DNA of 34,278 nucleotides from Legionellales bacterium. GTDB lineage: Bacteria; Pseudomonadota; Gammaproteobacteria; UBA1113. This document shows positions 283 through 17,302 of this stretch, one piece after another. Position 1 is the stretch's first letter, and each line of letters begins with the position of its first letter. The translations under genes were made by a program, and so were the position numbers. Under the pieces are notes generated by a model, which saw only the letters and a list, made by a program, of their open reading frames with translations, was not told where the DNA came from and searched no databases. The DNA lies in NCBI GenBank assembly GCA_013043985.1, contig JABEVJ010000261.1, forward strand, positions 1 to 34,278. Direction: 5' to 3'.

Positions 283-423
283 CTTTTTTTTGTTGAACTG
301 AATGAAACATTGGAAAAGTGCTGAAAACCTTGGAATTTCATCTGTCTATTGAGCCAATGCACGCGGGCTAATAGTGTTGACACTATGTCGAAGAGTAAAG
401 TATTAAGCAAAGGGGAAAATATC

Positions 424-915
424 ATGGCAAGTAAAATACTGATGAGTGCCTGTTTGTTGGGGGATAAAGTACGCTATGATGGAAACGATTGCTTGCAAAC
501 CCATGCTAAATTACAAGCCTGGATCAAAGCAGGCAAGGTTGTTTCTATTTGTCCCGAAATGGCAGGTGGTTTGCCCGTACCGAGGCCGCCAGCAGAAATT
601 GAACAGGACAAAACCGCGACCATGGTATTAGCCGGTGAGGCAAAAATACGCACGATCGGGGGAGAAGATGTCACGAAAGAATATATCACGGGAGCTCAAA
701 AAGCCTTGGCGCTCGTTAAACAGCATCATATTCAGGTGGCTATTTTGAAATCACGCAGCCCTTCCTGTGGGGTCAGACAAATCTATGATGGTACGTTTTC
801 GCATGGCTTGATAGCGGGTATGGGTCTGACCGCACAGCTTTTATCGGAGTATGGCGTGCAAGTTTTCGATGAAACAGAAATTGATCTCGCCCTGGAAACA
901 GCAGAAAAGACATGA
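424..915 (+). CDS. DUF523 (YbbK/TudS-like) family protein
   Basis: MASKILMSACLLGDKVRYDGNDC... is the typical DUF523 N-terminus. I chose the ATG at 424 because the RBS aagggga lies 6-7 nt upstream. The longer ORF from 349 overlaps the repeat region. Confidence 0.7.
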   Translation: MASKILMSACLLGDKVRYDGNDCLQTHAKLQAWIKAGKVVSICPEMAGGLPVPRPPAEIEQDKTATMVLAGEAKIRTIGGEDVTKEYITGAQKALALVKQHHIQVAILKSRSPSCGVRQIYDGTFSHGLIAGMGLTAQLLSEYGVQVFDETEIDLALETAEKT

Positions 916-1985
916 AAAACTCGACTCTCCTTATCCAGCCCTTATCGTTAGCTGAAGCGCAAAAAAAACGGGAAAACCAGCATACTTATACGGGTTGCAT
1001 TATTTTAACACATGATCACCGTATCCTGCTGCAATTACGCGATGCTGGATTTAAAAAATTTGCTTCTTGTATTTCTGCTTTCGGAGGTTGCATCGAGGAA
1101 GATGAAACCCCTGAGCAGACTATTTGTCGTGAGTTAAACGAGGAATTAGGGGCGAAAGTCGCTGCTTCAGAGCTTGTGTTTATCAGTGCCTATACCGAAG
1201 CGGTGACCCATTTTACCGATGTCATTTACGGTTATTTTTGGCATGACAAGCACAATACGATTACGGGTTGCTTTGAAGGAAGTCCGTTATATTGCTCGTC
1301 TGCTCAGGAGGCATTAAAACAACCTGATTTGATGGATGATGTGCGGTGGCTGCTTGAACAGTGCCAAGAGCAAAAATTGATTCGGGAGAGATTGGCACAT
1401 TCAGTGACACCCTCTTCATTGCAACCTATTGAGAGGGTTATAACCGATATTCATTCCATTGAAAAATTTTCCACTCACCGCCTGATTGCTCGTCGAATTG
1501 AATCAATGGATTTAGAGCTGTTGGCGGAAATGGACTCTCATCCCATGGTTATGGCCACCTTGGGTGGCGTTAAAACCAGAGAAGAAACCGAGGCTCGCTT
1601 GGCGTGGAACTTGAAACAGTGGGAAGATAATAGCCATGGTCTGTGGCTATTTTTTTTAAAAGAAACGGGCAAGTTTATTGGGCGAGCGAGCCTACGACGC
1701 ATGATTGTTGACGATAAAGACGAGCTTGAATTAGGTTATGCCCTGATGCCTGATTTTTGGGGTAAGGGTTTTGCGACTGAAATGGCTCAAGCCTGCATCG
1801 AGATTGCCTTTGATTATCTTGATTATGAAAATATTGCCTGCTTTACCGCGCTAACTAACGCTCCCTCACGCCGTGTGATGGAAAAATTGGGATTTCAGTA
1901 TGAAAAAAACTGCATGCATGCCAATACTCCCCATGTTCTTTATCGGTTGTGTAATCCAAAAAAAAACCTATCAAAAACCGAGTAA
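912..1985 (+). CDS. Nudix hydrolase fused to a GNAT (RimJ/RimL-like) acetyltransferase
   Basis: The Nudix box G-CIEED-E-TPEQTIC-RELNEELGA sits in the N-terminal half. The C-terminal half (LGYALMPDFWGKGFATEMAQACIEIAF...RRVMEKLGFQYE) is GNAT-like. The start overlaps the previous stop by 4 bp (ATGA). Confidence 0.75.
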   Translation: MKNSTLLIQPLSLAEAQKKRENQHTYTGCIILTHDHRILLQLRDAGFKKFASCISAFGGCIEEDETPEQTICRELNEELGAKVAASELVFISAYTEAVTHFTDVIYGYFWHDKHNTITGCFEGSPLYCSSAQEALKQPDLMDDVRWLLEQCQEQKLIRERLAHSVTPSSLQPIERVITDIHSIEKFSTHRLIARRIESMDLELLAEMDSHPMVMATLGGVKTREETEARLAWNLKQWEDNSHGLWLFFLKETGKFIGRASLRRMIVDDKDELELGYALMPDFWGKGFATEMAQACIEIAFDYLDYENIACFTALTNAPSRRVMEKLGFQYEKNCMHANTPHVLYRLCNPKKNLSKTE

Positions 1986-1988
1986 AAG

Positions 1989-2873
1989 ATGAATAACTCG
2001 ATCTCAGCATACAAACAGCATCTTAATCTTCAAAAAGCGACTTTTTCGCGTATCGACCATGACGATGCGATGGTTGCCATTGTTTATCACATTACCCAAC
2101 CAACGGGTGAGCAGTTTATTCTAAAAATATGTCCTCGCACTCAGGATTACTTACGTGAAGCGTATTTTTTGAAACACTTTGCGGGTCAATTACCCGTTCC
2201 ACGTATTATACAGCTTGTGGAACCAGAAGCAGACGTTGATGGTGCCATTCTCATGGAGTGCTTACAGGGAAAATTGCTGACGGAAAACGATGTTACCGAT
2301 ACCTTGGCTTATGAAATAGGGGTGCTTCTTGCCCGCATTCACCTCAATAGGACATCGGGTTACGGGGATTTAACGAAACCAGAGGATTTAAATCCTGCTC
2401 CGCGTTTTCATTTTACCTCAAAATTTGAAGAGGGTTTTGCAGAATGCAGTCATCATTTACCTAGTACACTGCTTGAGCAATGTCATCGTTATTATGATAC
2501 CAATATTGATTTTTTAACCAACGTTGATGGCTCCTGCATAATACACCGCGATTTTCGACCTGGAAACATAATAGTTCACAAGGGTAAAATCGAAGGAATC
2601 ATTGATTGGGCTTCAGGACGTGCGAGCTTTGCTGAGGAAGATTTTTGCCCTTTGGAGCACGGAGAATGGCCAATCCATCCGAGCAGTAAAAAATCTTTTT
2701 TAGCCGGATATGCCAGCGTTCGACCGCTCCCTGATTACCGTACCATTATGCCATTTTTGCGTATGAGCAGAGCATTTGCTACCATTGGTTTTACCGTCAA
2801 ATGCGAGACATGGCAAACCAAAAACTCGCGTGCTTATGAGTTTAACCGCCGATTTCTTGAAGCGTTTTTTTAG
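1989..2873 (+). CDS. APH-type phosphotransferase (aminoglycoside/choline-kinase fold)
   Basis: Catalytic loop IIHRDFRPGNIIV and the metal-binding segment IIDWASG are present. Length is 294 aa. Confidence 0.75.
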   Translation: MNNSISAYKQHLNLQKATFSRIDHDDAMVAIVYHITQPTGEQFILKICPRTQDYLREAYFLKHFAGQLPVPRIIQLVEPEADVDGAILMECLQGKLLTENDVTDTLAYEIGVLLARIHLNRTSGYGDLTKPEDLNPAPRFHFTSKFEEGFAECSHHLPSTLLEQCHRYYDTNIDFLTNVDGSCIIHRDFRPGNIIVHKGKIEGIIDWASGRASFAEEDFCPLEHGEWPIHPSSKKSFLAGYASVRPLPDYRTIMPFLRMSRAFATIGFTVKCETWQTKNSRAYEFNRRFLEAFF

Positions 2874-2882: not shown

Positions 2883-3368
2883 ATGTCAGACAATAATAAT
2901 GAAACCATGGCTGATAAAACAGGAGCGGATAGTATTCAAATTGTGAAAGCATTAAGCCCCCGTGAATGGGAAGCAATCCGCCATTTTCGTCAATATTATT
3001 TTTTTGATAAAGCATCCATAATCGATCCTTACACCTGGACTTTCAATCATGAAAAACATGATCATCTTGTTCTGTATAAAGGATCATTGATGGTAGGGTA
3101 TGCTCATCTTCAATACTGGCCTGAATCAAGAGTGGCTTTAAGAATTATTGTGGTTGATGAGCCACATCGAAATCAGGGGTTAGGCTCTGAATTTTTGCAT
3201 CAAATTGAACTCTCGTTAAAAGAGCATGGGATTGAAAAAATACACGTCCAGTCATCACCGGAAGCCTATCAATTTTACTGCCAAAATAATTATATCGACA
3301 TGCCATTCAATGATCCGGATGGTTATGAGTCATGCTCTTCGGACATTGATATGGGTAAAATTTTATAA
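2883..3368 (+). CDS. GNAT family N-acetyltransferase
   Basis: Acetyl-CoA motif VVDEPHRNQGLGSEFL. RBS aggagg lies upstream of the ATG. Confidence 0.7.
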   Translation: MSDNNNETMADKTGADSIQIVKALSPREWEAIRHFRQYYFFDKASIIDPYTWTFNHEKHDHLVLYKGSLMVGYAHLQYWPESRVALRIIVVDEPHRNQGLGSEFLHQIELSLKEHGIEKIHVQSSPEAYQFYCQNNYIDMPFNDPDGYESCSSDIDMGKIL

Positions 3369-3409: not shown

Positions 3410-5179
3410 TTAGCCTGGAATAAAGCCGTTCTTCTGTTTTTGCCACAACTCGGTAAAATGCCCTTTTTTATCGAGCAGAGCTTGCATCGAGCCATCTTCG
3501 ATGATTTTTCCCTGCGAAAACACAAGAATCCTGTCCATATTCGCGAGCGTGGAAAGCCGATGGGCAATTACAATGGCAGTGGCGTCTTGCATGATGTGTT
3601 TTAAACTGTGTTGAATATTTTCCTCAGTCACTGAGTCCAAAGCAGCAGTGGCCTCGTCCAAAATCAGAATCGGTGCTTTTTTCAGAATAGCGCGGGCAAT
3701 AGCAATACGCTGACGCTGTCCGCCCGAGAGTTTGATTCCTCGCTCGCCCACCAAGGTATGATAATGTTGGGGGAGCGCACTGATGAATTCGTGACATTCG
3801 GCACGTTTTGAAGCCTCAATAACTTCTTCATCTGTTGCTGTCAGTTTACCGTAGCGAATATTTTCCATGAGTGAGCGGTGAAACAACATGGATTCCTGCG
3901 GGATCATAGCGATGGATTGTCGAAGCGAACCCTGAGTAACCTCAGCAATATTTTGACCATCAATATAAATTGATCCTGCTTGTAAATCATAAAAACGAAG
4001 CAGTAATTGAATAAAGGTAGTTTTTCCCGCACCGGAAAAGCCCACCAGCCCGATTTTTTCACCCGCTTTAATGCGCAGACTCAATCTTTGAAATAAGGGG
4101 CGTTCGGCATCGTAACCAAAAGTAATCCGGTCAAGCACAATCTCTGGCGTCTTAATAACCAAGGGAGGGGCATTTGGCGCGTCGAGAATATCGTGCCCTT
4201 CCAATAATTCCGAAAGCGCATTTTGTATTTTGCCGATTTCTCTCACACACTGACCAAATTGAAAGGCGCACCACCACACATACATGAGGGCACTGAAGGT
4301 TAACATCCCAACCAAAGTAAAATCACCCACCGTGATGTTTTTATGCTGCCAAGAGATTAATAAACCGCCAAACATCGCAATTAAGGCGATAATCGTGCTG
4401 ATGTCCTGAATCAAACGCACTTTTTCGAGTGAAAAAGCCGCATCCCACGCGCGCCTTTGCTCTATCATCTGATATTGATTCAAATAGTTTAATTCGTGAT
4501 TCATACTCGAAAAAATACGAATGGTTAAAATATTGTTGATGGCATCGGTAATCTTACCGCTTAACCGTGAGGTACTGTCAGCATGTTTCTCAGCAAAATG
4601 ATTGACTTTTTTCAAACTGAACAAGGTAATTGAAAAGTGTACAATGACCCACACGGCTAAAATACTGCTAAATAAAGGACTGGCCAAACTCAATAAAATA
4701 AAGACGTTCACTAAAAAAACGCCAGTAGAAATAAAATTGTAGATAAACATTTCAGAAATCATCTGGGCACCGCTGGCTAAATCGGCCACCTTACTTGCGA
4801 GGCTGCCTGAAAAGCGATCGCTGAAAAATTGATGGGAATGATGCCCCAGATATTGAAAGACATTTTCCCGAATGGTTGCGCGGAGCTTGGCAAAGCCCTT
4901 TCCAGCCAGCGCACCTTGAAAGCGAAGAGCAGTTGCCGTGAAAATCCAGCAACCTAACCATAGCAAAAGCGGCACGGAAAACGTGCGCCACAAATGCGGA
5001 ATCGGTGGTTTTAATGTGCTCATGCGATCAATGAACAGTTTGATAAAAAAAGGGTAAATCGTTTCATTGATCGCCCAAATCACGGCAACACTGGCCATCA
5101 GCACAAAAAACCAAGGCTGTTTTTTAGTGAAAAATGCCAGAAATGAAAGCGGTTTGCTGGGTAAGGACGGTGTTGGCAT
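3410..5179 (-). CDS. ABC exporter, fused permease and ATPase (MsbA/multidrug type)
   Basis: Six-TM N-terminal half. Walker A GFSGAGKTT, signature LSGGQRQRIAIARA, Walker B ILILDEATAALD. Confidence 0.9.
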   Translation of the reverse strand: MPTPSLPSKPLSFLAFFTKKQPWFFVLMASVAVIWAINETIYPFFIKLFIDRMSTLKPPIPHLWRTFSVPLLLWLGCWIFTATALRFQGALAGKGFAKLRATIRENVFQYLGHHSHQFFSDRFSGSLASKVADLASGAQMISEMFIYNFISTGVFLVNVFILLSLASPLFSSILAVWVIVHFSITLFSLKKVNHFAEKHADSTSRLSGKITDAINNILTIRIFSSMNHELNYLNQYQMIEQRRAWDAAFSLEKVRLIQDISTIIALIAMFGGLLISWQHKNITVGDFTLVGMLTFSALMYVWWCAFQFGQCVREIGKIQNALSELLEGHDILDAPNAPPLVIKTPEIVLDRITFGYDAERPLFQRLSLRIKAGEKIGLVGFSGAGKTTFIQLLLRFYDLQAGSIYIDGQNIAEVTQGSLRQSIAMIPQESMLFHRSLMENIRYGKLTATDEEVIEASKRAECHEFISALPQHYHTLVGERGIKLSGGQRQRIAIARAILKKAPILILDEATAALDSVTEENIQHSLKHIMQDATAIVIAHRLSTLANMDRILVFSQGKIIEDGSMQALLDKKGHFTELWQKQKNGFIPG

Positions 5180-5338: not shown

Positions 5339-5799
5339 TTGCCAAATCATATTGAACATTATTATCAGATGGAAGATTTTTTCTTTAGTTTGATGAGCAA
5401 GCAACGACTTAACTTTGATGAGGGTTGCGCCTATGTGACGGGTGTGCAGGCAGAAAACTTGAATCCGCTGATGTTAAGGAACGGGGTGACACCTCGTCTT
5501 GGAGCAAGCTATCACCACACGAACATTTGTGCCACTTTAGCCTCTATATTGACAAAATTCCGGTAGCATCGCTGACCTTATCTATTGCAAATGGTTTAGC
5601 TCGCATTGATGATGTGGGAACATTGCCCGCCTATCAACGGCGAGGGTACGCGACGGACTTAATCCGCCATGCATTAACGCTTGCCTATCGGTTAGGCATA
5701 ACACATTGTTTTCTGGAGGCAAGCTTAAGTGGTCAAGTCGTCTATGAAAAAATAGGGTTTAACACGTTGTTTACCAGTGAAATTTATGTCAAAACCTGA
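5339..5799 (+). pseudogene. GNAT acetyltransferase interrupted by a single-nucleotide frameshift
   Basis: The N-terminal part is in the frame of ORF 5339..5566. The GNAT core (LPAYQRRGYATDLIRHAL...YEKIGF) is in the frame of ORF 5425..5799. The two frames overlap around 5470-5520, near a GGGG run at 5482-5485. Confidence 0.55.
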
Positions 5800-5849
5800 A
5801 ATAAAACGCTACGGGTAGCGATATGATTGTTTTAAGGAGGATCAAAACC

Positions 5850-6179
5850 ATGTTTGCTGTTATTTACAGAGGATTCATTTTACCAGAGCATGAGCAGGCC
5901 TATCGCCAAGCATGGAGGGAAATTGCTGATTATTTTGTTCAACATGCAGGGGCACTTGGCTCCACATTACATAAAACGCCAGCCGGAGAATACATTGCGT
6001 ATTCACGCTGGCCAGATAAAGCAACCCGTGATCGTTATTGGGATGAGCAAGGCAATTTGCAGACAGTAGCAGGATTAAATGAGACCATTGCCACGTTAAA
6101 AATGGCGATTGATCGCAATAAACCCTATGATGAAATTGCGATGGAAGTCGTGGATGAAACCGAGAAGAAAATACCCTAA
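5850..6179 (+). CDS. Antibiotic-biosynthesis-monooxygenase (ABM) domain protein
   Basis: MFAVIYRGFILPEHEQAYRQAWREIADYF...YSRW is typical of small ABM/ferredoxin-like-fold proteins. A strong RBS aaggagg lies 9 nt upstream of the ATG at 5850. Confidence 0.6.
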   Translation: MFAVIYRGFILPEHEQAYRQAWREIADYFVQHAGALGSTLHKTPAGEYIAYSRWPDKATRDRYWDEQGNLQTVAGLNETIATLKMAIDRNKPYDEIAMEVVDETEKKIP

Positions 6180-6233: not shown

Positions 6234-6788
6234 ATGAGCGAATATCAATATTATGAATTTTGTCGGATTGGCAGCCCGCTTTCTGCTGAAGCTCGGAAAA
6301 CAATGCAGTCACTTTCCAGTAGAGCAAAAGTCAGCACCCATGGTGCCTCTTATACCTATAATTATGGTGATTTTCGCGGCAAGCCTGCAGAGTTGGTTTT
6401 AAACTATTTTGATGTATTTTTTTATATCAGTAATTTTGGCACTCTTCGGCTGATATTTAAATACCCTGAAAATCAAATTACTGAAGAAGAGATAGAAAAA
6501 TACAGGATTAAACACGTCATCCACTATCAAAAGCATGAGCAGTATGGATTGCTGACTATTGATATTAATAATGAAGAGGGTTTTGGATGGACAGAGGGGG
6601 AAGGATTGCTGGCCGATTTATTGCCACTTTATGATGAAATAAAAGATAACCATTACCATTTTTTACAAGTCGTTTCGGCTGTTCATGATCATTTTATGGG
6701 AGAAAATTCAAACACACTAAGCAATTTACTGACCAAAAACACTTTATCATCAGCAGAAAAAACTTTTGTGGCATGTGTTGGTCTTTAA
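6234..6788 (+). CDS. Hypothetical protein
   Basis: Clean 184-aa ORF with RBS aggggga. I recognise no motif with confidence. Confidence 0.5.
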   Translation: MSEYQYYEFCRIGSPLSAEARKTMQSLSSRAKVSTHGASYTYNYGDFRGKPAELVLNYFDVFFYISNFGTLRLIFKYPENQITEEEIEKYRIKHVIHYQKHEQYGLLTIDINNEEGFGWTEGEGLLADLLPLYDEIKDNHYHFLQVVSAVHDHFMGENSNTLSNLLTKNTLSSAEKTFVACVGL

Positions 6789-6797: not shown

Positions 6798-7634
6798 ATG
6801 ACAACTAATACTTACAGTCATGAAATGCAGCAACAACTCAAAGAAAGCCTCGAATTATTGAAAATGATTTTAGGATCGGATCTTTTGGGTGTTTATCTTT
6901 ATGGTTCATCTCTTGTAGGCGGACTGCAAAAATACAGCGACATTGACTTATTCGTTGTTGTCAAACGCGCGACAACCCCAGAGGAAAAAACCAGATTAAT
7001 TGCTCATCTTCTTCCAATCTCGGGTATTTACATGAAAAGTTCAAAGCGGTCTATTGAAATGACCTTTGTTGAGAAGTCAGCGATTAATCCTTGGCATTAT
7101 CCTCCACACTGTGATTTTCAATATGGTGAGTGGTTACGCCAATCTTTTGAGAAAGGCATGCTTGACCTAGGGATGACTCATGAGATGCCAGATCTAGCGA
7201 TCATTGTTACTCAAATTTTATTAAAGTGTCAAATTCTACAGGGATTAGAGCCTGAGCAATTATTGGCGGATGTCCCCTATCATGATTTTACAAAAGCCAT
7301 GCATCATGATTTAAATAGACTGGTCACCGATCTTGAGCATGATACTCGAAATGTCCTGCTGACTTACGCACGAATTTGGAGTACCTTAGAAACCAATGCG
7401 ATAAGATCTAAACCTGTCGCAGCAGACTGGGTAATGTCTCATTTGCCTAAAGTGTATCAACCCGTGATGAAGCGAGCTAAATCAATCTGTATCGGTGTAG
7501 AAAATGAATATTGGGGTGATATCCAAGAGCTTGTAAAACCGTGTGCGGATTTTATGGCCAATAAAATCAATGAACAGTTTGCATTGATAAACGTTGATGA
7601 TCTTAATCAGGTTATAAAACTTGCCGAGCGGTAA
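6798..7634 (+). CDS. Aminoglycoside nucleotidyltransferase, aadA/ANT(3'')/ANT(9)-like
   Basis: N-terminal NTase motif LLGVYLYGSSLVGGLQKYSDIDLFVVV. C-terminal DUF4111-like helix region (LLTYARIWSTLETNAIRSKPVAADWV). The distance from the start to the motif matches AadA. Confidence 0.8.
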   Translation: MTTNTYSHEMQQQLKESLELLKMILGSDLLGVYLYGSSLVGGLQKYSDIDLFVVVKRATTPEEKTRLIAHLLPISGIYMKSSKRSIEMTFVEKSAINPWHYPPHCDFQYGEWLRQSFEKGMLDLGMTHEMPDLAIIVTQILLKCQILQGLEPEQLLADVPYHDFTKAMHHDLNRLVTDLEHDTRNVLLTYARIWSTLETNAIRSKPVAADWVMSHLPKVYQPVMKRAKSICIGVENEYWGDIQELVKPCADFMANKINEQFALINVDDLNQVIKLAER

Positions 7635-7656: not shown

Positions 7657-8925
7657 ATGAAAATTAAGAAAACGATTCATGATGTCATCAATGGCTTGCT
7701 GCCAACCATGGAACCTAACGGTACTCTGCTTGTCGCTCTCAATGAGGAAATCATTTATAAACAATGTTTTGGTTTTGCCGATATGGCAAATAAAACACTT
7801 GTCACTTTCGATACTCAATTCCTGGCAGGTTCAGTGACCAAACAGTTTACGGCAGCAGCCATTCTAAAAGCATTGCTTGATATCAGCTTACAAAACGGAA
7901 TAGATAAAAATGATCTTGCCAATTTAAAAAACAACATCCAAGCCAAGTTAGCTCATGCTGTAGCTCATTATTTGCCACAGGAACATCCTCTCTGGGATGG
8001 TTTGATGCCATCATGGGCGAAGCGGGTGACTTTACACCAGCTATTAATACATTCATCCGGCATATCCAATTATACAGGGTTGCCCGATTTTGAAAACAAA
8101 GCGTTTCCCAAACCTTCTGATTTGGTTGATTTTTTTAAAACACATGATTTGGAGTTTAATTCAGGAGAAAAATTTTCGTACAGTAATTCAGGCTATTTTT
8201 TATTGGGAATAATTGCACAACAAATAACGCATCAGCCGCTGGAAAGTTATTTGCAAACTCAATTTTTTGCACCATTCAACATGCACGCCAGTTTTTTGGC
8301 CACGCAACATACCGCTAAAGAATTGAAACAGACCGACTCTCGCGCCGCAAACTTAGCCTGTGGCTATCAATTCGACATGACGAAACCACAGGCAAACTTA
8401 ATTGAGGTGAAAAACTCTATATCGATGCAAATCCCGGGAGCTGCGGGCAGTCTTGTGTCGACTGCTTCGGACTTACTTAAATGGAATAATGCGTTATATA
8501 CTGGAAAAATTATTCCACTATTTTTGCTTGATTTGATGCTGAAACCGCATATACAGACAGAACAAAAGAATGCCTATTATGGATATGGTATAGAGGTTTT
8601 GAAATCCGGTTCTTTTGGAGAGTATTATACGCACAGAGGAGGCATACCGGGTTTTCATTCAAAATTGACTTTCATTCCATCTTTACAGTTATCCATGATT
8701 GTTCTGGAAAATCTCCATGAAGACAAGAGCCGTTTGATGCCAGAGATAGAAAGGATGAGAGCGGCATTGCCAACGACATTGACTGAAAGTGAAAAATGGC
8801 AGGAAGTTGACAAAATGATAGCGGGTAAATATCCCAGTATCATTGAAAACAGGCAGCGGTATGAGCTTATGCTGGTGGAGGAAGCCATTATAGAGGCATT
8901 GTCAGTATTCGAAAACCGTATTTAA
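7657..8925 (+). CDS. Serine hydrolase of the beta-lactamase (class C/esterase) family
   Basis: SxxK motif SVTK and YxN motif YSN (YSNSGY). Length is 422 aa. Confidence 0.75.
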   Translation: MKIKKTIHDVINGLLPTMEPNGTLLVALNEEIIYKQCFGFADMANKTLVTFDTQFLAGSVTKQFTAAAILKALLDISLQNGIDKNDLANLKNNIQAKLAHAVAHYLPQEHPLWDGLMPSWAKRVTLHQLLIHSSGISNYTGLPDFENKAFPKPSDLVDFFKTHDLEFNSGEKFSYSNSGYFLLGIIAQQITHQPLESYLQTQFFAPFNMHASFLATQHTAKELKQTDSRAANLACGYQFDMTKPQANLIEVKNSISMQIPGAAGSLVSTASDLLKWNNALYTGKIIPLFLLDLMLKPHIQTEQKNAYYGYGIEVLKSGSFGEYYTHRGGIPGFHSKLTFIPSLQLSMIVLENLHEDKSRLMPEIERMRAALPTTLTESEKWQEVDKMIAGKYPSIIENRQRYELMLVEEAIIEALSVFENRI

Positions 8926-8962: not shown

Positions 8963-9742
8963 ATGAAAACTAAACACATAACGCCATATGACGATATTAA
9001 TCGTATTTGCCTTATGTTATCAGAAAAGCTGAAAAATATTTTGGGAAACACACTTATCGGTATTTATCTCACAGGCTCACTCAGCTACGGTGATTTTAAT
9101 ACGGGTAGTAGCGATATTGATTTTCTAATTGTTTTGCATACCCTCCCATCAGAAGAACAGCGTAAAAAAATTCAAGATATGCATAAAAAAATTGCAGAGC
9201 AGCATCCAATATGGGCAAAACGCATTGAGGCTTCTTATATCACGAAAGATATGTTGCAAAGCAACGAGTCACCCAAAACACCACGACCCTATGTCAATGA
9301 GGGAAAATTTTGGGATGCAGCTCCCTATGGGAGTGAATGGCTATTGAACCTTTACGTCTTACAGGATTGTGGCATCGCTTTAGTTGGACAAGAGCCAAAA
9401 ATGTTGATTGGCCGTCCAATTGATATCCATGAGGTAAGATTAGCTTCAAAAAATGATTTTTATCAAGAATGGAAGCCGTTGTTGACAGAGCCATCTGCTT
9501 TAAACGACAGTCATTCACAGGCCTATGTTATTCTTACCCTTTGTCGAATTCTGCACAGAGCGAAAAATGATAATGTGGTTTCGAAAAAAGAGGCTGCCGC
9601 TTGGGTAAATGAGGCTTATAATCAGCAATGGAGTTCATTGATTAAAAAAGCTGAAAACTGGTATTATGAACAAGAATTGAATGAAATTGATGAAATCTTC
9701 AGGTTTATTCGATTTATTGCCACAGAATTAGAGGCAGGATGA
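8963..9742 (+). CDS. Second nucleotidyltransferase-domain + DUF4111 protein (aadA-like family)
   Basis: LIGIYLTGSLSYGDFNTGSSDIDFLIVL plus C-terminal AYVILTLCRILHRAKNDNVVSKKEAAAWV. I prefer the ATG at 8963 over the TTG at 8936. Confidence 0.7.
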   Translation: MKTKHITPYDDINRICLMLSEKLKNILGNTLIGIYLTGSLSYGDFNTGSSDIDFLIVLHTLPSEEQRKKIQDMHKKIAEQHPIWAKRIEASYITKDMLQSNESPKTPRPYVNEGKFWDAAPYGSEWLLNLYVLQDCGIALVGQEPKMLIGRPIDIHEVRLASKNDFYQEWKPLLTEPSALNDSHSQAYVILTLCRILHRAKNDNVVSKKEAAAWVNEAYNQQWSSLIKKAENWYYEQELNEIDEIFRFIRFIATELEAG

Positions 9743-9760: not shown

Positions 9761-11206
9761 ATGGAGCTGTCTATGTTAAACCCCTTTTACCCCAGCAAAA
9801 AATTGAATGAATTCATCATTGCTTACGTCAATACAAAAAATGAGGTAGAAAAAAACAAATTATGGGATGAAATCAATACTCCACTAATTGAGGACATTCC
9901 CGATGACCGTACGCATCAATACGTCACATTTCTTTATCGCTTTGAAGATATAAATTCTGCAAAAACCCCGGTGACTTATCTGTATAGTAGCATTCTCGAA
10001 CTACCGTTTTCAAAAGATAGCCAATTTATCCCCATCCCTGAAACCGATATAGGCTATTTAACCCTGAAATTGCCGAATACACTGCGAGCAGCTTACAATA
10101 TTGTGACGGTGGATATTGATTTACCGGGTGACGAGGCTCTTGACGCTATCAGCCCCATTGGGCAATCACCAATATTACCGAAATTTACAGGTGAAGTGAA
10201 TAAAGCCAATGCAAAACTTATGTTTTTGTACGAAGCCAAAAAATTGGGACTTGACCCTAAAAATAAATTAAAAGCCTATGATATCAATGGTGCTGATGAG
10301 TATATTGAAATGGAGTCTGTTTTTGAACTATCGATGGCACCAAAAGATAATTTTTCTCCTTCCACCATCGAGCAAGTCAAAGCAGAACGTGATTTATTGC
10401 GAAAAAATGGCCGTTTTATAGAATGCGATCTTGATTTTTCAGATACCTGCCTGAAAAACCTGGATGATTATAAAAATGAAAACTCAGATTCGCTTACAAA
10501 ATCCACCCGAAAATATTGGATTTACCTACCGCCTGAGTATGAAAAAGCGACTGAAGCAGAATACCCTTTTATCCTTTTTCTGGATGGAAGCTCCTATTTA
10601 AATGCCATTCCGGCTCCTTCTATTCTGGAGCGAATGATGACAGAGAAAATGATTCCACCCACTATTGCCGTTTTTTTTGAATATTCAATGACTGATCGTT
10701 TTAGCGAATATTATTGCCATGATCAATTTACTGAATTTTTGGCCAATGAATTTGTACCCTTGTTACGCCATAAAAAGCACCTAAAAATAGCCAACAGCCC
10801 CGCATTATCAACGATTGTCGGTTTGAGTGCCAGTGGATTGGCTGCCTTTTATGCAGGGCTTCGTTACCCCACTCTATTTGGAAATGTGATCGCACAATCC
10901 GCTTCTTTTTGGGCAAAAAAACAAACTGAACTTGAGGACATAATTTTTGAAAATAGCCTCAAAATTAACGCCTCTTTCTTTAACCTTGAGGCAGGCTCCT
11001 ATGAAAACACGCCTACGGAGTATCAATTTCCTGACGATGCAAAAGAAAACCTTTCTTTACTGCAAGCAGTTAAAAATGTACATAATTCTCTCAATAAACA
11101 AGGTATTCCGGTTGTCTTCCATGAATTTGTGGGTGGGCATAATTACCTCTGCTGGAAGACGTCCTTATCCACACGATTAAAAGAGGTGTACCATCATAGG
11201 AAATGA
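9761..11206 (+). CDS. Alpha/beta-hydrolase esterase, enterochelin-esterase (Fes)-like architecture
   Basis: YWIYLPPEY...YPFILFLDG, and a nucleophile elbow GLSASG. There is a long N-terminal domain as in Fes-type esterases. An alternative start at 9773 has a better GGAG RBS. Confidence 0.65.
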   Translation: MELSMLNPFYPSKKLNEFIIAYVNTKNEVEKNKLWDEINTPLIEDIPDDRTHQYVTFLYRFEDINSAKTPVTYLYSSILELPFSKDSQFIPIPETDIGYLTLKLPNTLRAAYNIVTVDIDLPGDEALDAISPIGQSPILPKFTGEVNKANAKLMFLYEAKKLGLDPKNKLKAYDINGADEYIEMESVFELSMAPKDNFSPSTIEQVKAERDLLRKNGRFIECDLDFSDTCLKNLDDYKNENSDSLTKSTRKYWIYLPPEYEKATEAEYPFILFLDGSSYLNAIPAPSILERMMTEKMIPPTIAVFFEYSMTDRFSEYYCHDQFTEFLANEFVPLLRHKKHLKIANSPALSTIVGLSASGLAAFYAGLRYPTLFGNVIAQSASFWAKKQTELEDIIFENSLKINASFFNLEAGSYENTPTEYQFPDDAKENLSLLQAVKNVHNSLNKQGIPVVFHEFVGGHNYLCWKTSLSTRLKEVYHHRK

Positions 11207-11219: not shown

Positions 11220-11531
11220 TTAAACTTTCAGATTAAATCCGGTTAATCCCTCATATCCCCCTTCGGCAATACGGATGATTTCCTCTTTAGCAGGGTGTGT
11301 TACCGCATCATGGAAGAAAGTATCCAGTGTGGCTTCATTTTCAAAATCAATGAAAAAAACATGGGTAAATCGCCTGTTTGCGCTTTCTTCGTGAAACTCG
11401 CATTCGCCGCCCAAAAAACTGATAATTCCGGGTAATTTGTTTTTAAGCGCAATAAAATGAGCGATTGCCATTTCTATGGCCTGCTTGGTGACACTGGGCT
11501 TTACTTTGAATAGGATGGTGTGTCTTATCAT
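11220..11531 (-). CDS. Dabb (stress-responsive alpha/beta-barrel) domain protein
   Basis: MIRHTILFKVKP... spans 103 aa with the typical Dabb layout. It lies convergent with the esterase gene. Confidence 0.6.
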   Translation of the reverse strand: MIRHTILFKVKPSVTKQAIEMAIAHFIALKNKLPGIISFLGGECEFHEESANRRFTHVFFIDFENEATLDTFFHDAVTHPAKEEIIRIAEGGYEGLTGFNLKV

Positions 11532-11834: not shown

Positions 11835-12746
11835 ATGTTAAATATCAACTTTAATCTTTTAAAGGCACTGGATGCGTTGCTTTCAGAGCAGAATGTATCA
11901 AAAGCAGGGGATAAAGTAGGTGTCACACAATCTGCTATGAGCGTTTCCTTGAATCAACTCAGAAAAATGTATCGCGATGATTTACTGGTCAGGGGCGTGC
12001 AGGGTCGTATGAGCCTGACTGTTTTTGCCGAAGCATTAAGGCAACCTGTTCAAGAGGCCATGCGTCAAATGGAAACCGTGTTTATTGCCCATACGCCTTT
12101 TGAGCCAATTCATAGTACCCGAACGTTTCATATTGGCATGTCGGATTATATTGCCTTTGTATTGTTACCCAACCTAATGAGAATAGTGGGCACTGTTGCG
12201 CCCAATATTAAGATTATGCAACATGCCGTCAACCACCTTGACAGCTTAAGGCCGTTTGAGGAAACCCAACTGGATGTGGTGTTGGGCGATTTTCGCTCTG
12301 TACCCAGCAGCTTGAAAACAACGCGTTTATTTACCGATGACAGTGTGATTGTAGCCGATAAAAAACATCCTGCCTTTGCCAAAAAGACATTCAGTGTCGA
12401 AAAAATGCTGACTTACCCGCAAGTGTTTGTTGCGCTGGAAAGCCAACCAGAGGACAATTTTATTGTTGAAATGCTCAAAAAAAACGGGCATAGCGTCAAA
12501 ATGAGTCTGATGACTCCTCATACTTTGATAGCATTGCAAACATTGCCTAACACCTTACTCATGACCAATACGGTCAAAAAACTGGCTGAACCTTTTCTTG
12601 AACCATTAGGGTTAGTGATGCGTGAAACACCCTATAAACTGCGAAATTACCATGCTAATATGTATTGGCATGCCAGAATGCAGAATGACCCGGCGCATAG
12701 CTGGTTACGGGAACTCATCAAAAATGCCACAGGTCGGCTGGAATGA
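11835..12746 (+). CDS. LysR-family transcriptional regulator
   Basis: N-terminal wHTH LLKALDALLSEQNVSKAGDKVGVTQSAMSVSLNQLR plus a substrate-binding-domain-sized C-terminus. Confidence 0.9.
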   Translation: MLNINFNLLKALDALLSEQNVSKAGDKVGVTQSAMSVSLNQLRKMYRDDLLVRGVQGRMSLTVFAEALRQPVQEAMRQMETVFIAHTPFEPIHSTRTFHIGMSDYIAFVLLPNLMRIVGTVAPNIKIMQHAVNHLDSLRPFEETQLDVVLGDFRSVPSSLKTTRLFTDDSVIVADKKHPAFAKKTFSVEKMLTYPQVFVALESQPEDNFIVEMLKKNGHSVKMSLMTPHTLIALQTLPNTLLMTNTVKKLAEPFLEPLGLVMRETPYKLRNYHANMYWHARMQNDPAHSWLRELIKNATGRLE

Positions 12747-12777: not shown

Positions 12778-14619
12778 ATGACAAATGAAATTCAAATCGA
12801 TGTTGCTCTCGTGCAGCAACTGATCGTTGCGCAATTCCCACAGTGGGCTGATCTTCTCATCAAACCCGTTGAATTTGGTGGCTGTGACAATAGAACTTTC
12901 CGTCTGGGGCGTGAAATGTCGATAAGATTACCCAGTGCTGAAGAATATGTAAGGCAGGTGAAAAAAGAACAAGAATGGCTACCCAAGATCGCACCGCACT
13001 TACCACTTCCTATTCCGCAGCCTCTTGCCATGGGGATGCCTTCAGAAGACTATCCCTGGCATTGGTCAATATATAAATGGCTGGAGGGAGAGAGTGCAAA
13101 TAGTCTTGAGCTTGATGATGCATATTTGGAGATAATCGCGGTGCAGCTTTCGCAATTCTTGCGTGCGTTTCATCAATTTGATGCTGCTGGTGCTCCCGCT
13201 CCGGGGCTTCATAACTGGTGGCGAGCGGCTCATACATCTGTTTATGATGCCGAGACAAGGTCGCTTATCGAAACACTCAAAGATTTTATTGATGTTGATA
13301 ACGCAATATCCCTTTGGCAAAGAGCCATAAACTCTCAATGGGATAGCGAACCTGTGTGGGTTCATGGAGATGTTGCCAGCGGTAATCTCTTGGTGAAAGA
13401 TAATAGACTTGCTGCTGTTATTGACTTTGGTTGTATGGGAATTGGTGATCCAGCCTGTGACCTAACAATAGCCTGGACATTTTTTAGGGGTGAAAGTAGA
13501 AATATCTTTAAGGCAAATTTACATTTTGATGAGGAGACTTGGGCAAGGGCACGCGGCTGGGCGATGTGGAAGGCACTCTATGAGATTTCTGAACTTGAAG
13601 AGAAGAGTGGCACAGAACTAGCGAAGCAAATGCAGATTATTGATGCGGTTATCGAGGAGGATCGGGCTACTCGACGAGGTCATAGTAAGGACGATGATCA
13701 TCCGCTTGGCCTGCCAATCGAATATCAACAAATGCCTGAATATTTCGATGCAAGTAATGTTAATGAAGAGACTGAAGCTAAAAATGCGGTAATACATAGA
13801 CTGTTAAAAGAGCAAAAAGTTAGAACGGTTTTGGATATGACCTGTGGCACGGGCTCACAAGTGTTTTACCTTGTTGAGCGGGGATATGAAGTCATTGGTA
13901 ATGATTTCAGTCCTGCTTTAATTGATATAGCACGAGATAAAGCAAAAAAAATGAATCGTAATATTACTTTCATTAAGGGTGATATGCGTCATGTCAAAAT
14001 AGGCAAATTCGATGCAGTTATCAGTATTTTTAACGCCATTGGACACCTAACCAAAGCAGATTTTGAAGTTGCGGTAAAAAATATATGCGTTAATTTGAAA
14101 GATAACGGCGTATATATTTGGTTCTTCCGGAATTGCCGTGGTGCTTCAAATTCCCCTTCAGCTTTACTTTCGTTATCTATTTGAATTTGAATAACATTCG
14201 TTGAATCGGCATGGTCGTTTTCTGGACAAACCACGGCAATTCCGGAAGAGCCATATATTTTTGATATTTATAACCTACAGGCCATTACTGATGAAACTAT
14301 TGATGATTTTGTGACGAACGTTGAAAGCGTTGTTAATGGTGTCACTATCCATAGTATGCAACATTCTGAGATTGACAGAGAGAAAGGTCTTCTCATCTCT
14401 CATGATCAATATACGATTTTCAAAGATAGATGTGAGCCGGAAATGCACACCAATAGTTTCAGTCTGCAAATTTATACTGCTGAAGAATTACAGGCAATAC
14501 TGAGCGAAAACGAGTTTGAAATAGTCGGCCAATATGACATGGATGGAAATTGTTTTATTGCGGATAAGAGCCTTAATATTCTAACCGTAGCCAGGAAAAA
14601 AAAGCATGTTAAATGCTAA
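12778..14619 (+). pseudogene. APH-type kinase fused to a class I SAM methyltransferase, split by a 133-bp insertion
   Basis: APH motifs WVHGDVASGNLLV and VIDFGCMGIGDPACDL. Methyltransferase motif I VLDMTCGTGSQ. Removing 14120..14260 joins ...DNGVYI to FDIYNLQAITDE... in frame with ORF 14311..14619. Confidence 0.8.
14120..14252. mobile_element. MITE-like non-autonomous element with 22-bp terminal inverted repeats and an 8-bp target duplication
   Basis: Left IR GGTTCTTCCGGAATTGCCGTGG (14120-14141) matches right IR CCACGGCAATTCCGGAAGAGCC (14231-14252) at 21/22. The flanking direct repeat ATATATTT lies at 14112-14119 and 14253-14260. There is no internal ORF. Confidence 0.8.
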
Positions 14620-14648: not shown

Positions 14649-15452
14649 ATGAGCAACTTTAAGCCTTACCTTGTCAAATGGCATCTCAAACCGGATGGCG
14701 AACCAATGACAATGCCCAGCAGTGAGCTGCTGCCCGTGCGTTATCAAGGCAAGCCTGCTATGTTGAAAATGGCTAACACAGAAGAGGAGCAAAGAGGCTT
14801 TGCGCTTTTATTGTTCAGGCAAGGGCTTGGTGCAGTGCCGATATTTGAGCATGAGGATAAGGTAATTTTAATGGAGCGGGCGATAGGAAACCGCTCGCTT
14901 GTCAGCATGGCAACAGAAGGGCAGGACAGCGAAGCCACGCGCATTATCTGTGAAGTGACGAATAAAATACATCAATTACAAATCAAGCCTTTTCCCTCTG
15001 AACTAGTACCTCTCAATATCTGGTTCAGGGCGTTGGAGCCGGTGGCAAAGCAGCGGGGCGGCTTATTTCAGAAAGCCCTGTTATTATCAAAGGAACTGTT
15101 AAATACGCCGCAGGAAGTCGCTGCCTTACACGGTGATATTCATCACGGCAATATTCTGGATTTTGGCGAGCATGGCTGGCGGATTATCGATCCAAAAGGA
15201 CTCGTGGGTGAACGCACATTTGATTTTGCGAATATTTTGTGCAATCCTACTCTTGAAATCGCTACCAAACTGCATCGATTGGAAGAGCAGGCATTGCTCA
15301 TCGCGCAGCTGGCAGAGGTTGATTATATCCGTTTATTGAAATGGGTGTTGGCGTATTCAGCACTGTCAGCCTCATGGCATCTTGAAGACGGCACGAATCC
15401 TGAGCTGGCACTCAGGGTCGCCACAATAGCTCATCAGCTGTTACGTCATTAA
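14649..15452 (+). CDS. APH(6)/StrB-like aminoglycoside (streptomycin-type) phosphotransferase
   Basis: LHGDIHHGNIL, IDPKGLVGERTFDFANIL and AYSALSASW parallel the StrB motifs LHGDLHHENI, IDPVGLVGE and AYGCLSAAW. Confidence 0.75.
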   Translation: MSNFKPYLVKWHLKPDGEPMTMPSSELLPVRYQGKPAMLKMANTEEEQRGFALLLFRQGLGAVPIFEHEDKVILMERAIGNRSLVSMATEGQDSEATRIICEVTNKIHQLQIKPFPSELVPLNIWFRALEPVAKQRGGLFQKALLLSKELLNTPQEVAALHGDIHHGNILDFGEHGWRIIDPKGLVGERTFDFANILCNPTLEIATKLHRLEEQALLIAQLAEVDYIRLLKWVLAYSALSASWHLEDGTNPELALRVATIAHQLLRH

Positions 15453-15477
15453 TGAACAGAGAAAGGTGATAAAAAAT

Positions 15478-16107
15478 ATGTCCATCTTATCCTGGTTAAC
15501 AGCCAAGTATTACGACAAAATCATGCAGGATGCCGAAACGAAAGGGCTGAAAGAGTGGCGAACGCAATTATTACGTCACGCCACGGGAACGGTACTGGAA
15601 ATTGGAGCGGGCACGGGAAGTAATCTTGAGTGTTATCCGCAGACGATAAAAAAACTGGTGCTGCTCGAACCTAGCCCGCACATGCGACAGCAATTAACGT
15701 TAAAATTATCAGCGAATAACGCATACCCTATTGAATTGTTGGACGGAAAAGCCGAATCTATTCCATTTCCAGATGCTACTTTCGATGCGATTGTTTGTAC
15801 ACTGGTTCTGTGCTCTGTCAAAAACATGGGCAAAGCACTCTCAGAACTGCATCGAGTGCTTGCTCCCGAAGGAAAATTGATTTTTATTGAGCATGTTGCT
15901 GCAGCCAAGCATACAACTCGATTCAAATGGCAAAAAATGGTTGAACCCGTCTGGAAAAGGATGGCATCAGGGTGTCATGTCACCCGTCAAACGGAAGCCG
16001 CGTTGGTTCAGGCAGGTTTCATGATTGAAGACATTGCTCGGCAAAGTATGCGCGGTGTTCCTTCTCTGGTTCGTCCTACCATCCGAGGGATTGCCATAAA
16101 ATGTTAA
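15478..16107 (+). CDS. Class I SAM-dependent methyltransferase (Methyltransf_11 type)
   Basis: Motif I VLEIGAGTGSN and post-I LVLLEPS. The ATG is at 15478; a GTG at 15466 is also possible. Confidence 0.75.
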   Translation: MSILSWLTAKYYDKIMQDAETKGLKEWRTQLLRHATGTVLEIGAGTGSNLECYPQTIKKLVLLEPSPHMRQQLTLKLSANNAYPIELLDGKAESIPFPDATFDAIVCTLVLCSVKNMGKALSELHRVLAPEGKLIFIEHVAAAKHTTRFKWQKMVEPVWKRMASGCHVTRQTEAALVQAGFMIEDIARQSMRGVPSLVRPTIRGIAIKC

Positions 16108-16129
16108 CCTTTAATATATTGCCAATCGT

Positions 16130-17302
16130 ATGCTTTTAGTCGCGGTCATTTTGATGGATCTCTTGGCGGGCATTGAGTTTGATTTATTCGTGCCGAGTTT
16201 TCCTGCCCTGCAAAGCCAGTTCGGTCTGTCGCCTTTTTGGGTAGAAGCGTTATTGTCAGTCAATTTCATCGGTTATTGTCTGAGTCTGTTTTTTGTGGGC
16301 GGGTTGGCCGATAGGTATGGACGTAAACCGATTATTTTGCTGGGGCTAGGCATGTTTACCCTCGGCAGTTTGCTTTGCCCCTGGGCGACGTCCTATTCCT
16401 TTCTTTTTATGGGGCGATTTCTTCAAGGGGTAGGTATTGCGGCTCCCGCGATCTTAAGTTTTTTAATCATTGCCGACGCCTATCCGCTTAAAAAACAGCA
16501 GTATTTGATGGCGATGCTCAATGGTTTAATGAATGTTTCTGTTGGTTTTGCCCCTGTGGTTGGCAGCTATGTCGCCCTGTATTTTCACTGGCAGGGCAAC
16601 TTTATGGCACTGCTGTTGTTAGGGGTACTGGTTTTGGTGATGACGGCCTGTTTTATTCCACACTATCCCTTGCCAGAAAAAAAAGAAACGCTCTCATGGC
16701 GTGGATATGTTCCACTCTTTCAATCAAAACCGTTGATGCTGTTGATGTCACATTTTGTGTTGATGTGCATTCCCTATTGGATTTTTGTGGGTATGTCGCC
16801 TTTACTGTACATGAAAAGCTTAAGGGTGAGTCTTGCTCATTTTGGGTATTATCAGGGCATACTGGCTTTGGTCTTTGGCCTGGGAAGTTTAGGTTTTGGC
16901 TTGATTATCCATCAGTTTGAACAGAAAAAAATACTCTATTTCGCCAGTCAAATCTTTATTGTCAGTTTGATCACCATTGGGTTCACGACGTTGTTCGACA
17001 GCCATAATCCACTCCTGATTACACTCGCCCTGCTTCCTTTTATTATCGGTCAGATTATTCCGTCTAATATTTTGTATCCTTTGTCCCTGAACATCCTGCC
17101 TGAGGCCAAAGGAAAAGTATCGGCGGTGATTCAAGGCTCTCGGCTTCTGTTGACAGCTCTTTCGCTTCAGCTGGCAGGTTATTTTTATAGTGGCTCCTTT
17201 CAATCGATTGGGGTGCTTATCCTCGGTTTTATTTTGATGGCACTGATGACGCTCTTTCTCGTCATCAAAAATCGTGAGTTGATGATGTTAATCAGCCGTT
17301 AA
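16130..17302 (+). CDS. MFS drug-efflux-type transporter (Bcr/CflA-like)
   Basis: About 12 predicted TM segments. MFS motif A GGLADRYGRKPIILLG. Confidence 0.8.
   Translation: MLLVAVILMDLLAGIEFDLFVPSFPALQSQFGLSPFWVEALLSVNFIGYCLSLFFVGGLADRYGRKPIILLGLGMFTLGSLLCPWATSYSFLFMGRFLQGVGIAAPAILSFLIIADAYPLKKQQYLMAMLNGLMNVSVGFAPVVGSYVALYFHWQGNFMALLLLGVLVLVMTACFIPHYPLPEKKETLSWRGYVPLFQSKPLMLLMSHFVLMCIPYWIFVGMSPLLYMKSLRVSLAHFGYYQGILALVFGLGSLGFGLIIHQFEQKKILYFASQIFIVSLITIGFTTLFDSHNPLLITLALLPFIIGQIIPSNILYPLSLNILPEAKGKVSAVIQGSRLLLTALSLQLAGYFYSGSFQSIGVLILGFILMALMTLFLVIKNRELMMLISR

Follow-up and report, generated by a model that had tools for sequence, protein, structure and literature searches.

A dense block of putative small-molecule-modifying enzymes and two exporters, bracketed by repeat arrays, on a contig of a Legionellales bacterium with mobile-element genes

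A compact block of enzyme and exporter genes

The 34,278-bp contig C121 (JABEVJ010000261.1) of a Legionellales bacterium assembly (GCA_013043985.1) was analysed over its whole length, which is called the window below. At 349–17302 it carries a dense block of genes for putative antibiotic- or small-molecule-modifying enzymes together with two exporters, one of the ATP-binding cassette (ABC) type and one of the major facilitator superfamily (MFS). The block is probably accessory cargo of a mobile element resembling a plasmid or an integrative and conjugative element (ICE), and, to judge from the families of its proteins, it would serve to inactivate and export small molecules.

Genes and domains were called with Pfam, and resistance functions with the curated equivalog cutoffs of NCBIfam. 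The block comprises 18 genes at a coding density of 95.5%, with gaps mostly of 3–54 bp. The genome has 32 matches to PF00583 (n = 19), PF01636 (n = 9), APH(6)-type (n = 2) and AadA_C (n = 2) models, and eight of these lie in the block, which makes up 0.63% of the genome (0.20 expected; Poisson P = 5.5e-11). Both AadA_C genes of the genome are among them, and any AadA_C gene occurs in only one of 20 relatives.

An earlier note on this DNA had described such a dense block of modifying enzymes with two exporters, and the Pfam calls and the enrichment bear this out. The three kinases of the aminoglycoside phosphotransferase (APH) fold that it listed are present, one of them (12778–14184) fused to an S-adenosylmethionine (SAM) methyltransferase, as are the two aadA-like nucleotidyltransferases, the antibiotic biosynthesis monooxygenase (ABM), here a borderline match, the ABC and MFS exporters and the LysR regulator. 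Pfam and motifs also agree on two SAM methyltransferase domains and on one Nudix domain with a complete Nudix box. Its tally of 17 genes and four GNATs needs correction to 18 genes and three GNAT domains, and its list lacked the TudS/DUF523, Dabb and conserved 184-aa protein genes.

Most of the genes are arranged in three operon-like units (Table 1). Unit 1 (349–3368) encodes the TudS-like protein, a Nudix-GNAT fusion, an APH and a GNAT; unit 2 (5339–11206) a GNAT remnant, the ABM protein, the conserved 184-aa protein, the nucleotidyltransferase ANT1, an S12-family hydrolase, the nucleotidyltransferase ANT2 and an esterase; and unit 3 (11835–17302) the LysR regulator, the APH-methyltransferase fusion (APH-MT), an APH(6)-family kinase, a stand-alone methyltransferase and the MFS exporter. 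The convergent ABC exporter and Dabb genes lie between the units. On motif inspection, catalytic motifs are kept in the intact genes. In the mechanism that we propose, these enzymes would inactivate exogenous antibiotic-like small molecules in the cytoplasm by phosphorylation, adenylylation, acetylation, methylation or hydrolysis, and the exporters would then remove them. Unit 3 would be a kinase-plus-efflux module under LysR control.

Mobile-element genes occupy the second half of the contig. They encode a DUF3987/YfjI protein, a single-stranded DNA-binding protein, an orphan N6-adenine methylase, KfrA and two tyrosine recombinases of the Phage_int_SAM_2/Integrase_1 type; an Ada gene is also found there. 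Domain searches found no type IV secretion system (T4SS) on the contig, scans of it gave no tRNA genes and no Rfam matches, and promoter and terminator scans of the window were uninformative. The GC content is 43.2% against 40.0% for the genome, whose assembly (2.70 Mb in 337 contigs, 96.7% complete) belongs to a GTDB order with only 21 species-level genomes. The accessory genes find their best matches on Legionella plasmids and in metagenome-assembled genomes (MAGs) of Legionellales, Tatlockia and Chlamydiae. The DUF3987/YfjI protein is 52% identical to its counterpart on pLPP, the plasmid of L. pneumophila Paris (NC_006365). Other relatives in a search with this backbone gene are distant (27–33% identity), so a comparison of the same backbone with different cargo is possible with pLPP alone.

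Table 1. Features of the block, its boundaries and one neighbouring gene (coordinates in the window; a point marks a feature with no strand)
Feature	Coordinates	Strand	Basis or remarks
Left bipartite TGTAGAAG array, 4+2 copies	160..282	+	bounds the block
TudS/DUF523-family protein (2-thiouracil desulfurase-like), first gene of unit 1	349..915	+	PF04463, 154.9 bits; three Cys visible
Nudix-GNAT fusion	912..1985	+	NUDIX and Acetyltransf_3; complete Nudix box GX5EX7REX2EEXG at residue 59
APH-fold kinase, no close characterised relative	1989..2873	+	PF01636, 80 bits; HRDFRPGN catalytic loop, IIDW
Generic GNAT	2883..3368	+	78% aa paralogue on C253; dN/dS 0.13 against it
ABC half-transporter exporter, fused transmembrane and nucleotide-binding domains, MsbA-like type	3410..5179	-	ABC_membrane and ABC_tran; under all equivalog cutoffs
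GNAT pseudogene, internal deletion of ~305 nt with frame change	5339..5799	+	alignment to intact homologues
ABM-fold small protein	5823..6179	+	PF03992, 25 bits against a cutoff of 23.1, borderline
Conserved 184-aa protein, function unassigned	6234..6788	+	family at 50–65% identity
ANT1, AadA/ANT(9)-like nucleotidyltransferase, predicted spectinomycin-specific	6798..7634	+	AadA_C, 106.8 bits; NTP_transf_2 and Polbeta
S12-family serine hydrolase, D-peptidase/amidase-like	7657..8925	+	PF00144; SVTK, YSN, HRG
ANT2, divergent AadA_C nucleotidyltransferase	8936..9742	+	ATP/Mg residues and catalytic Glu kept; 26% identical to ANT1
Esterase, Fes-like C-terminal alpha/beta-hydrolase, 245-aa N-terminal region unassigned	9761..11206	+	PF00756, 96 bits; GLSASG elbow, GGH
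Dabb (stress-responsive alpha+beta barrel) protein	11220..11531	-	PF07876, 48 bits; 77% aa paralogue on C195, dN/dS 0.11
LysR-family regulator, heads unit 3	11835..12746	+	91% aa paralogue on C8, dN/dS 0.06
APH-SAM-methyltransferase fusion, split by the MITE	12778..14619	+	joined flanks give a 566-aa frame
Miniature inverted-repeat transposable element (MITE), 133 bp	14120..14252	.	21/22 terminal inverted repeats; 8-bp ATATATTT duplication at 14112–14119 and 14253–14260
APH(6)-family kinase	14649..15452	+	PF04655, 248 bits; HGDIHHGN loop, IIDPKG; 75% aa paralogue on C8
Stand-alone class I SAM methyltransferase	15466..16107	+	motif I VLEIGAGTG; 68% aa paralogue on C8
MFS exporter, Bcr/CflA type	16130..17302	+	MFS_1, 143 bits; Bcr/CflA 160 against 201; 86% aa paralogue on C8, dN/dS 0.07
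Right bipartite TGTAGAAG array, 3+3 copies	17319..17449	+	abuts the DUF3987 gene
Acetyltransf_8 (PF13523) GNAT, distantly AAC(6')-like	19838..20380	-	AAC_6p_set_A, 61 bits against 280; 49% aa paralogue on C253

Repeat arrays and the extent of the block

The two TGTAGAAG arrays have the same orientation and layout and enclose the 17-kb block precisely. Their paired motif was found nowhere else in the 2.7-Mb genome, and the 30.7-kb stretch of pLPP around YfjI (73.6–104.3 kb) gave one chance-level match only. Candidate roles for the arrays are a binding site for a replication protein or recombinase, or a capture boundary.

These boundaries bear on whether the block is the tailoring or self-resistance part of a natural-product cluster with its core genes past the contig end. 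Such parts typically include genes for an ABM, a methyltransferase, an esterase, an exporter and a kinase, and the block starts only 348 bp from the start of the contig. However, the left array mirrors the right boundary, which suggests that the block ends there, and related clusters in other genomes also have no core enzymes. Domain searches found no core synthase or other biosynthetic core enzyme across the 34 kb of the window. The only candidate is a gene of the PEP-mutase superfamily (32540–33364), whose 48 bits for PEP mutase and 66 for PrpB stay well short of the cutoffs of 320 and 354. The earlier note had likewise seen no biosynthetic core, and a biosynthetic cluster is very improbable.

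ANT1, a predicted spectinomycin adenylyltransferase

ANT1 is the only gene of the block with a sequence-supported drug target. It is also the only block protein to pass any NCBIfam model, the broad 'aminoglycoside adenylyltransferase family' subfamily PRK13746 (199 against 193), and stays below ANT_9 (220.7 against 340) and AadA (168.5 against 375). In AadA, Asp-47 and Asp-49 are ligands of Mg and ATP and Glu-87 serves as the catalytic base; E87, W112, D182 and H/N185 are the determinants of spectinomycin adenylation, and activity on streptomycin additionally needs W173 and a two-residue insertion at 177–178 (PMC6065190). Aligned to Salmonella AadA (~141 bits), ANT1 keeps D48 and D50 (equivalent to D47 and D49), E87, W112, D182 and N185. 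Asn-173 replaces Trp-173, and the 168–178 segment is two residues shorter than in AadA. The spectinomycin determinants are thus kept while W173 and the insertion are absent, so that ANT1 is predicted to be an ANT(9)-like adenylyltransferase active on spectinomycin only. It would adenylylate the 9-OH of spectinomycin-type aminocyclitols with ATP and two Mg2+ held by D48 and D50, with E87 as catalytic base, and should spare streptomycin. The earlier note held that substrates cannot be inferred from sequence alone. For ANT1 the published determinants do point to one, and for the other enzymes the statement stands.

The closest relatives of ANT1 (71–74% aa identity) belong to MAGs of Parachlamydiales/Chlamydiae and of Legionellales/Gammaproteobacteria. 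That both chlamydial and Legionella-like MAGs contain them suggests that amoeba-associated bacteria have exchanged genes. No other gene of the block is found in the flanks of these relatives.

The aminoglycoside-binding residues of ANT1 also speak against an anti-phage defence island made up of nucleotidyltransferases, kinases, Nudix proteins, methyltransferases and ABC ATPases. Such a reading draws on the mobile element, on the adjoining GNAT-toxin-like gene and orphan methylase, and on weak domain-level PADLOC matches (PDC-S07, PDC-S09 and mad2/3/8). These matches are partial, at the level of the fold, of 30–100 bits and to single domains, and most proteins are unmatched. PADLOC shows no complete system, and a defence island is extremely improbable.

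Paralogues and selection

Several block genes have paralogues elsewhere in the genome, against which their dN/dS values are 0.06–0.23. On contig C8 (5362–8282), a compact trio of LysR, APH(6) and MFS genes lies beside cupin, alpha/beta-hydrolase and CinA-like genes, and unit 3 resembles this trio enlarged by insertion of the APH-MT and methyltransferase genes. Contig C234 (146–4516) has an intact APH-MT; the two genes immediately upstream of it encode membrane proteins, one MFS-like and the other a multi-pass protein of ~415 aa that looks like an exporter. Exporters thus adjoin enzymes in the block as well as at the C8 and C234 paralogues.

Contig C253 (387–5819) holds a second island of six consecutive genes: an APH, an AAC(6')-like GNAT, a GNAT, a Nudix gene, a triple fusion and a double GNAT. 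The triple fusion joins GNAT, nucleotidyltransferase and DUF4440 domains in 589 aa, and the island is followed by a heavy-metal P-type ATPase gene. C121 and C253 together account for 11 of the 19 PF00583 matches in the genome.

Two of the 18 block genes are broken. The first is the APH-MT, for which the earlier note was right to call a MITE hit. Once the flanks of the MITE are joined, a frame is restored that runs collinear with the intact 575-aa paralogue on C234, at 87% identity, and the empty site is visible in that paralogue. The inverted ends of the 133-bp insert start GGTTCTTCC and GGCTCTTCC; we take these ends and the 8-bp duplication to resemble ISL3-family ends. Neither a second copy nor a parent transposase was found in the assembly. 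The short non-coding insert, its inverted ends, the duplication and the empty site agree with a MITE, but the element is single-copy here and lacks the multiple copies expected of one. Against the C234 paralogue, dN/dS is 0.18 for the part upstream of the insert and 0.23 for the part downstream. Judging by these low values on both sides, the insertion is recent and not a sign of long-term decay.

The second broken gene is the GNAT at 5339–5799, which the earlier note rightly saw as decaying and put down to a frameshift. Its cause is not a one-nucleotide slip but an internal deletion. In intact homologues of 258–263 aa, residues 11–49 correspond to 5351–5465 and residues 166–258 to 5509–5788, ~116 codons being replaced by 43 nt. 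A slip of one nucleotide at the GGGG run, or phase variation there, was rejected on this alignment. An independent Logan assembly (run SRR9677582) is 100% identical over 4459–12739, which spans the deletion and stops short of the MITE. The relaxed selection on part of the block that the earlier note had read from the two broken genes is not supported in general, given the intact catalytic motifs and the range of dN/dS.

Recurrence of the enzyme set

The gene order of the block was found neither as a whole in 40 relatives, nor around ANT1 across all species genomes, nor on metagenome contigs, and metagenome scans for a syntenic copy, made with the serine hydrolase and with the DUF3987 protein, were both empty. 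An order that is unique across these searches fits the view of the block as variable cargo, which the earlier note had proposed to check by comparing related replicons.

The same enzyme set, in shuffled order and with domain fusions, recurs in relatives and on pLPP. One relative (G010, contig C20) has AraC-GyrI, Cass2, GNAT, APH, methyltransferase, GNAT, APH(6) and APH genes beside RhuM/BRO genes, and another (G012, contig C17) has a GNAT, a RibD_C-ANT fusion and an APH. A metagenome contig carries a GNAT, two APHs, GNAT-APH and GNAT-GrpB fusions, a GNAT, a methyltransferase and an MFS gene beside TraG/TraH. A chromosome-like contig has a Nudix-APH fusion, two GNATs, a methyltransferase, an APH and an ABC-F protein, together with flagellar genes and a weak DotI/IcmL match. 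Homologues of the ABC exporter (42–48% aa identity) occur in many relatives.

Fusions are frequent in this set. In the closest relatives of the APH-MT kinase domain (65–81% identity), the fusion partner is a GNAT, Nudix, alpha/beta-hydrolase, GrpB, AAA-kinase or APH(6) domain, and relatives of the methyltransferase half are fused to GNATs. None of 1.84 billion representative proteins matched both halves, so that the APH-MT pairing appears to be confined to this genome, while the proneness to fusion is general.

The fusion of G012 (2872–4209) encodes 445 aa of RibD_C, nucleotidyltransferase and AadA_C domains. It lies beside an APH, an AbiE toxin-antitoxin pair and a homologue of the deleted GNAT of the window.

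This recurrence bears on the choice between our preferred reading and one in which unrelated genes for small single-domain enzymes have accumulated on a mobile element with no common function, having assorted metabolic or housekeeping-like roles or none. Such an accumulation is suggested by the lack of synteny with any other genome or metagenome contig searched, by family scores below threshold, by the two pseudogenes and by the generic GNATs, whose best curated model is RimI, far under its cutoff. However, the same families stand together at at least six independent loci and are fused in many combinations, a pattern that random accumulation would not give. Purifying selection and the operon-like packing with a regulator and exporters likewise speak against it, and we consider it unlikely.

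A conserved 184-aa protein and the question of host-directed effectors

The 184-aa protein of unit 2 has no Pfam, NCBIfam or PADLOC match. Its AlphaFold2 model is confident (mean predicted local distance difference test 91.4, predicted template modelling (TM) score 0.90), and a Foldseek search of the PDB gave no structural relative (best TM score 0.28 or lower). Elsewhere this family of ~185 aa is found in accessory or mobile regions of ankyrin-rich genomes.

That homologues of this protein lie in ankyrin-rich genomes, and that best matches indicate a lineage with Legionella-like accessory genes, would fit kinases and acetyltransferases that are translocated into an amoebal host as effectors. 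Legionella encodes GNAT and kinase effectors. Against this, the block proteins are ordinary bacterial-type enzymes with close kin in Rhizobium, Streptomyces and Enterobacteriaceae plasmids, and they stand alongside a LysR regulator and efflux pumps. Pfam finds no eukaryotic-like domains or repeats in the block, and a Dot/Icm component in the source genome is only weakly matched. Host-directed effectors are improbable.

Weighing the inactivation of small molecules

The physiological role that we infer for the block has several points against it. GNAT, APH-fold, Nudix and SAM methyltransferase families are promiscuous and have many metabolic, housekeeping and protein-modifying members. No common substrate linking the three units was found. 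The contig is not closed and does not fix the ends of the element, its replicon or its copy number. Two genes are inactivated, one by the GNAT deletion and one, the APH-MT, by the MITE. The APH(6)-family kinase shares 33.3% identity with StrB/APH(6)-Id over 87% of its length, as measured on StrB copies from plasmids in the plasmid collection. No block protein reaches an NCBIfam equivalog cutoff for antimicrobial resistance (AMR).

The label of detoxification or resistance island given in the earlier note therefore holds in part. It is the best available explanation and has the determinants of ANT1 in its favour, but with no AMR cutoff reached it is otherwise a family-level assignment. The same applies to the kinase that the note called StrB-like. 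It belongs to the PF04655 family and has an intact catalytic loop, but is distant from StrB and falls under the APH_6 equivalog cutoff (228.6 against 325). Its nearest plasmid relatives (44–50% identity) are uncharacterised.

Other enzymes of the block

The serine hydrolase had been called class-C-like, which does not hold. It is a relative of S12 D-peptidases and amidases in which HRG replaces KTG; it scores 55.5 against 415 for bla_class_C, and AmpC aligns with residues 3–67 only, in the region of the SxxK motif, so that a class C beta-lactamase is rejected. Among PDB entries it lies nearest to D-amino-acid amidase, alkaline D-peptidase and R61 DD-peptidase. No N-terminal hydrophobic signal is visible on inspection, which makes beta-lactam hydrolysis in the periplasm unlikely.

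ANT2 lacks equivalents of D182 and H/N185, the aligned positions being a gap or Ser, and Tyr, and scores 56 bits against 340 for ANT_9. It thus has neither the spectinomycin nor the streptomycin determinants and resembles a class of nucleotidyltransferases said to probably do something else (PMC6065190).

The esterase is Fes-like in its C-terminal half (residues 242–478 align), and to this extent the earlier description is sound; it is not Fes proper, scoring 122.8 against 222 with its N-terminal domain unmatched. The APH-fold kinase of unit 1 has remote matches only. Its best PDB match is hygromycin-B 4-O-kinase (E = 2e-4), and the APH(3') and homoserine kinase models are about equally good, both far under their cutoffs. 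Like the RimI model for the generic GNATs, these scores are too low to speak for or against housekeeping enzymes as the closest characterised homologues, the case that the earlier note had set against its own reading.

Neighbouring genes

Four GNAT-type domains lie on the contig outside the block: one PF00583 domain at 18983–19609, two at 24697–25746 and one PF13523 domain at 19838–20380. The last belongs to the neighbouring gene that the earlier note took for AAC(6')-like. It is indeed a GNAT of the Acetyltransf_8 family, but related to AAC(6') only distantly (Table 1). The gene at 24697–25746 encodes a tandem double-GNAT protein of 349 aa, is followed by an AhpC/TSA-family redoxin gene and lies in the backbone half of the contig, so that the enzyme guild reaches past the repeat-bounded block. 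Further on, the Ada-type methyltransferase/regulator gene and the gene of the PEP-mutase/isocitrate-lyase superfamily overlap by 44 nt (31501–33364).

Implications

If the block does inactivate drugs, Legionella-like environmental bacteria and their plasmids would be a source of divergent resistance determinants missed by current AMR databases. Among these would be an ANT of the spectinomycin type, a relative of APH(6), and fusions of a kinase with a methyltransferase and of Nudix with an acetyltransferase, carried on mobile DNA that has genes in common with chlamydial and other amoeba-associated lineages. If, on the other hand, the enzymes do not act on drugs, the block would be a caution against taking APH, ANT and GNAT annotations as resistance. 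The repeated re-pairing of domains gives a testable handle, namely which fused domains act on the same substrate, and this question bears on the large class of proteins annotated as 'aminoglycoside phosphotransferase family' and 'GNAT family'.

A wider proposal, which we offer tentatively and hold to be doubtful, is that Legionella-like and other amoeba-associated bacteria share an unrecognised recombining toolkit, of which the block would be one instance. APH, GNAT, SAM methyltransferase, Nudix, AadA/GrpB nucleotidyltransferase and hydrolase domains would continually be re-paired in it as neighbours and fusions and move as cassettes bounded by protein-binding repeat arrays. Were this true, the environment would hold a store of antibiotic-inactivating enzymes with new mechanisms and possibly dual action, such as the phosphorylation and methylation of a single drug. 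The TGTAGAAG arrays would then mark a site for capture, excision or replication control of the whole 17-kb cassette.

Comparison with known systems

Like integron cassette arrays, the block strings together small, unrelated genes of resistance type, head to tail and on one strand. An integron array is nevertheless rejected. The gaps of 3–54 bp are too short for attC sites, there is neither an IntI-type integrase nor an Rfam match, and the units hold regulators and convergent genes.

ANT1 shares with ANT(9) and ANT(3'')(9) (AadA) the two-domain architecture of an N-terminal nucleotidyltransferase domain and a helical AadA_C domain, the ATP/Mg residues, Glu-87, Trp-112, Asp-182 and Asn-185. It differs by its sub-cutoff scores and the absence of Trp-173 and of the 177–178 insertion, and its closest kin are not in clinical integrons. 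The APH(6)-family kinase is of the same Pfam family as APH(6)-Id (StrB), but is paired with a LysR regulator and an MFS pump, whereas StrB is paired with strA. As in AAC(6')-Ie/APH(2'')-Ia, two modifying domains share one polypeptide in the APH-MT and Nudix-GNAT fusions, and relatives have comparable GNAT-APH, Nudix-APH, GrpB-APH and APH(6)-APH fusions; the domain lineages of AAC(6')-Ie/APH(2'')-Ia differ from those of the window fusions.

The cargo of Legionella ICEs includes annotated beta-lactamase and aminoglycoside-resistance genes (PMC3864950), and a Legionella ICE is reported to alter stress and antibiotic phenotypes (PMC4010831). The LGI/GI-T4SS islands and ICE-beta-ox of Legionella resemble the block in carrying variable mobile cargo with beta-lactamase, aminoglycoside-resistance and efflux annotations. 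They are defined by T4SS modules and tRNA integration, whereas contig C121 has neither.

The cargo half of pLPP has the same guild beside its YfjI/DUF3987 gene, with ~10 GNATs, ~5 phosphotransferases, a GNAT-APH fusion, an AadA-family gene, a SAM methyltransferase, alpha/beta-hydrolases, DUF4440 and blaOXA. Its AadA-family protein is 68% identical to ANT1, and the kinase of its GNAT-APH fusion is 49% identical to the fusion kinase of the window. Gene order and most genes are non-orthologous between the two. pLPP has blaOXA with BlaR/BlaI, AlaX/YbaK and MerR, and has neither the APH-MT fusion nor the APH(6)-MFS module. Near-identical plasmids of the pLPP type occur in L. hackeliae and in other L. 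pneumophila strains, and the literature searched gave no functional test of this cargo. The block has the hallmarks of pLPP-like cargo, a cluster of APH, GNAT, nucleotidyltransferase and methyltransferase genes that lies beside mobile-backbone genes and is non-syntenic between elements. Such loci are thus already present, uncharacterised, on known Legionella plasmids and ICEs, and what is new here is the modestly novel APH-MT architecture and the repeat-bounded structure.

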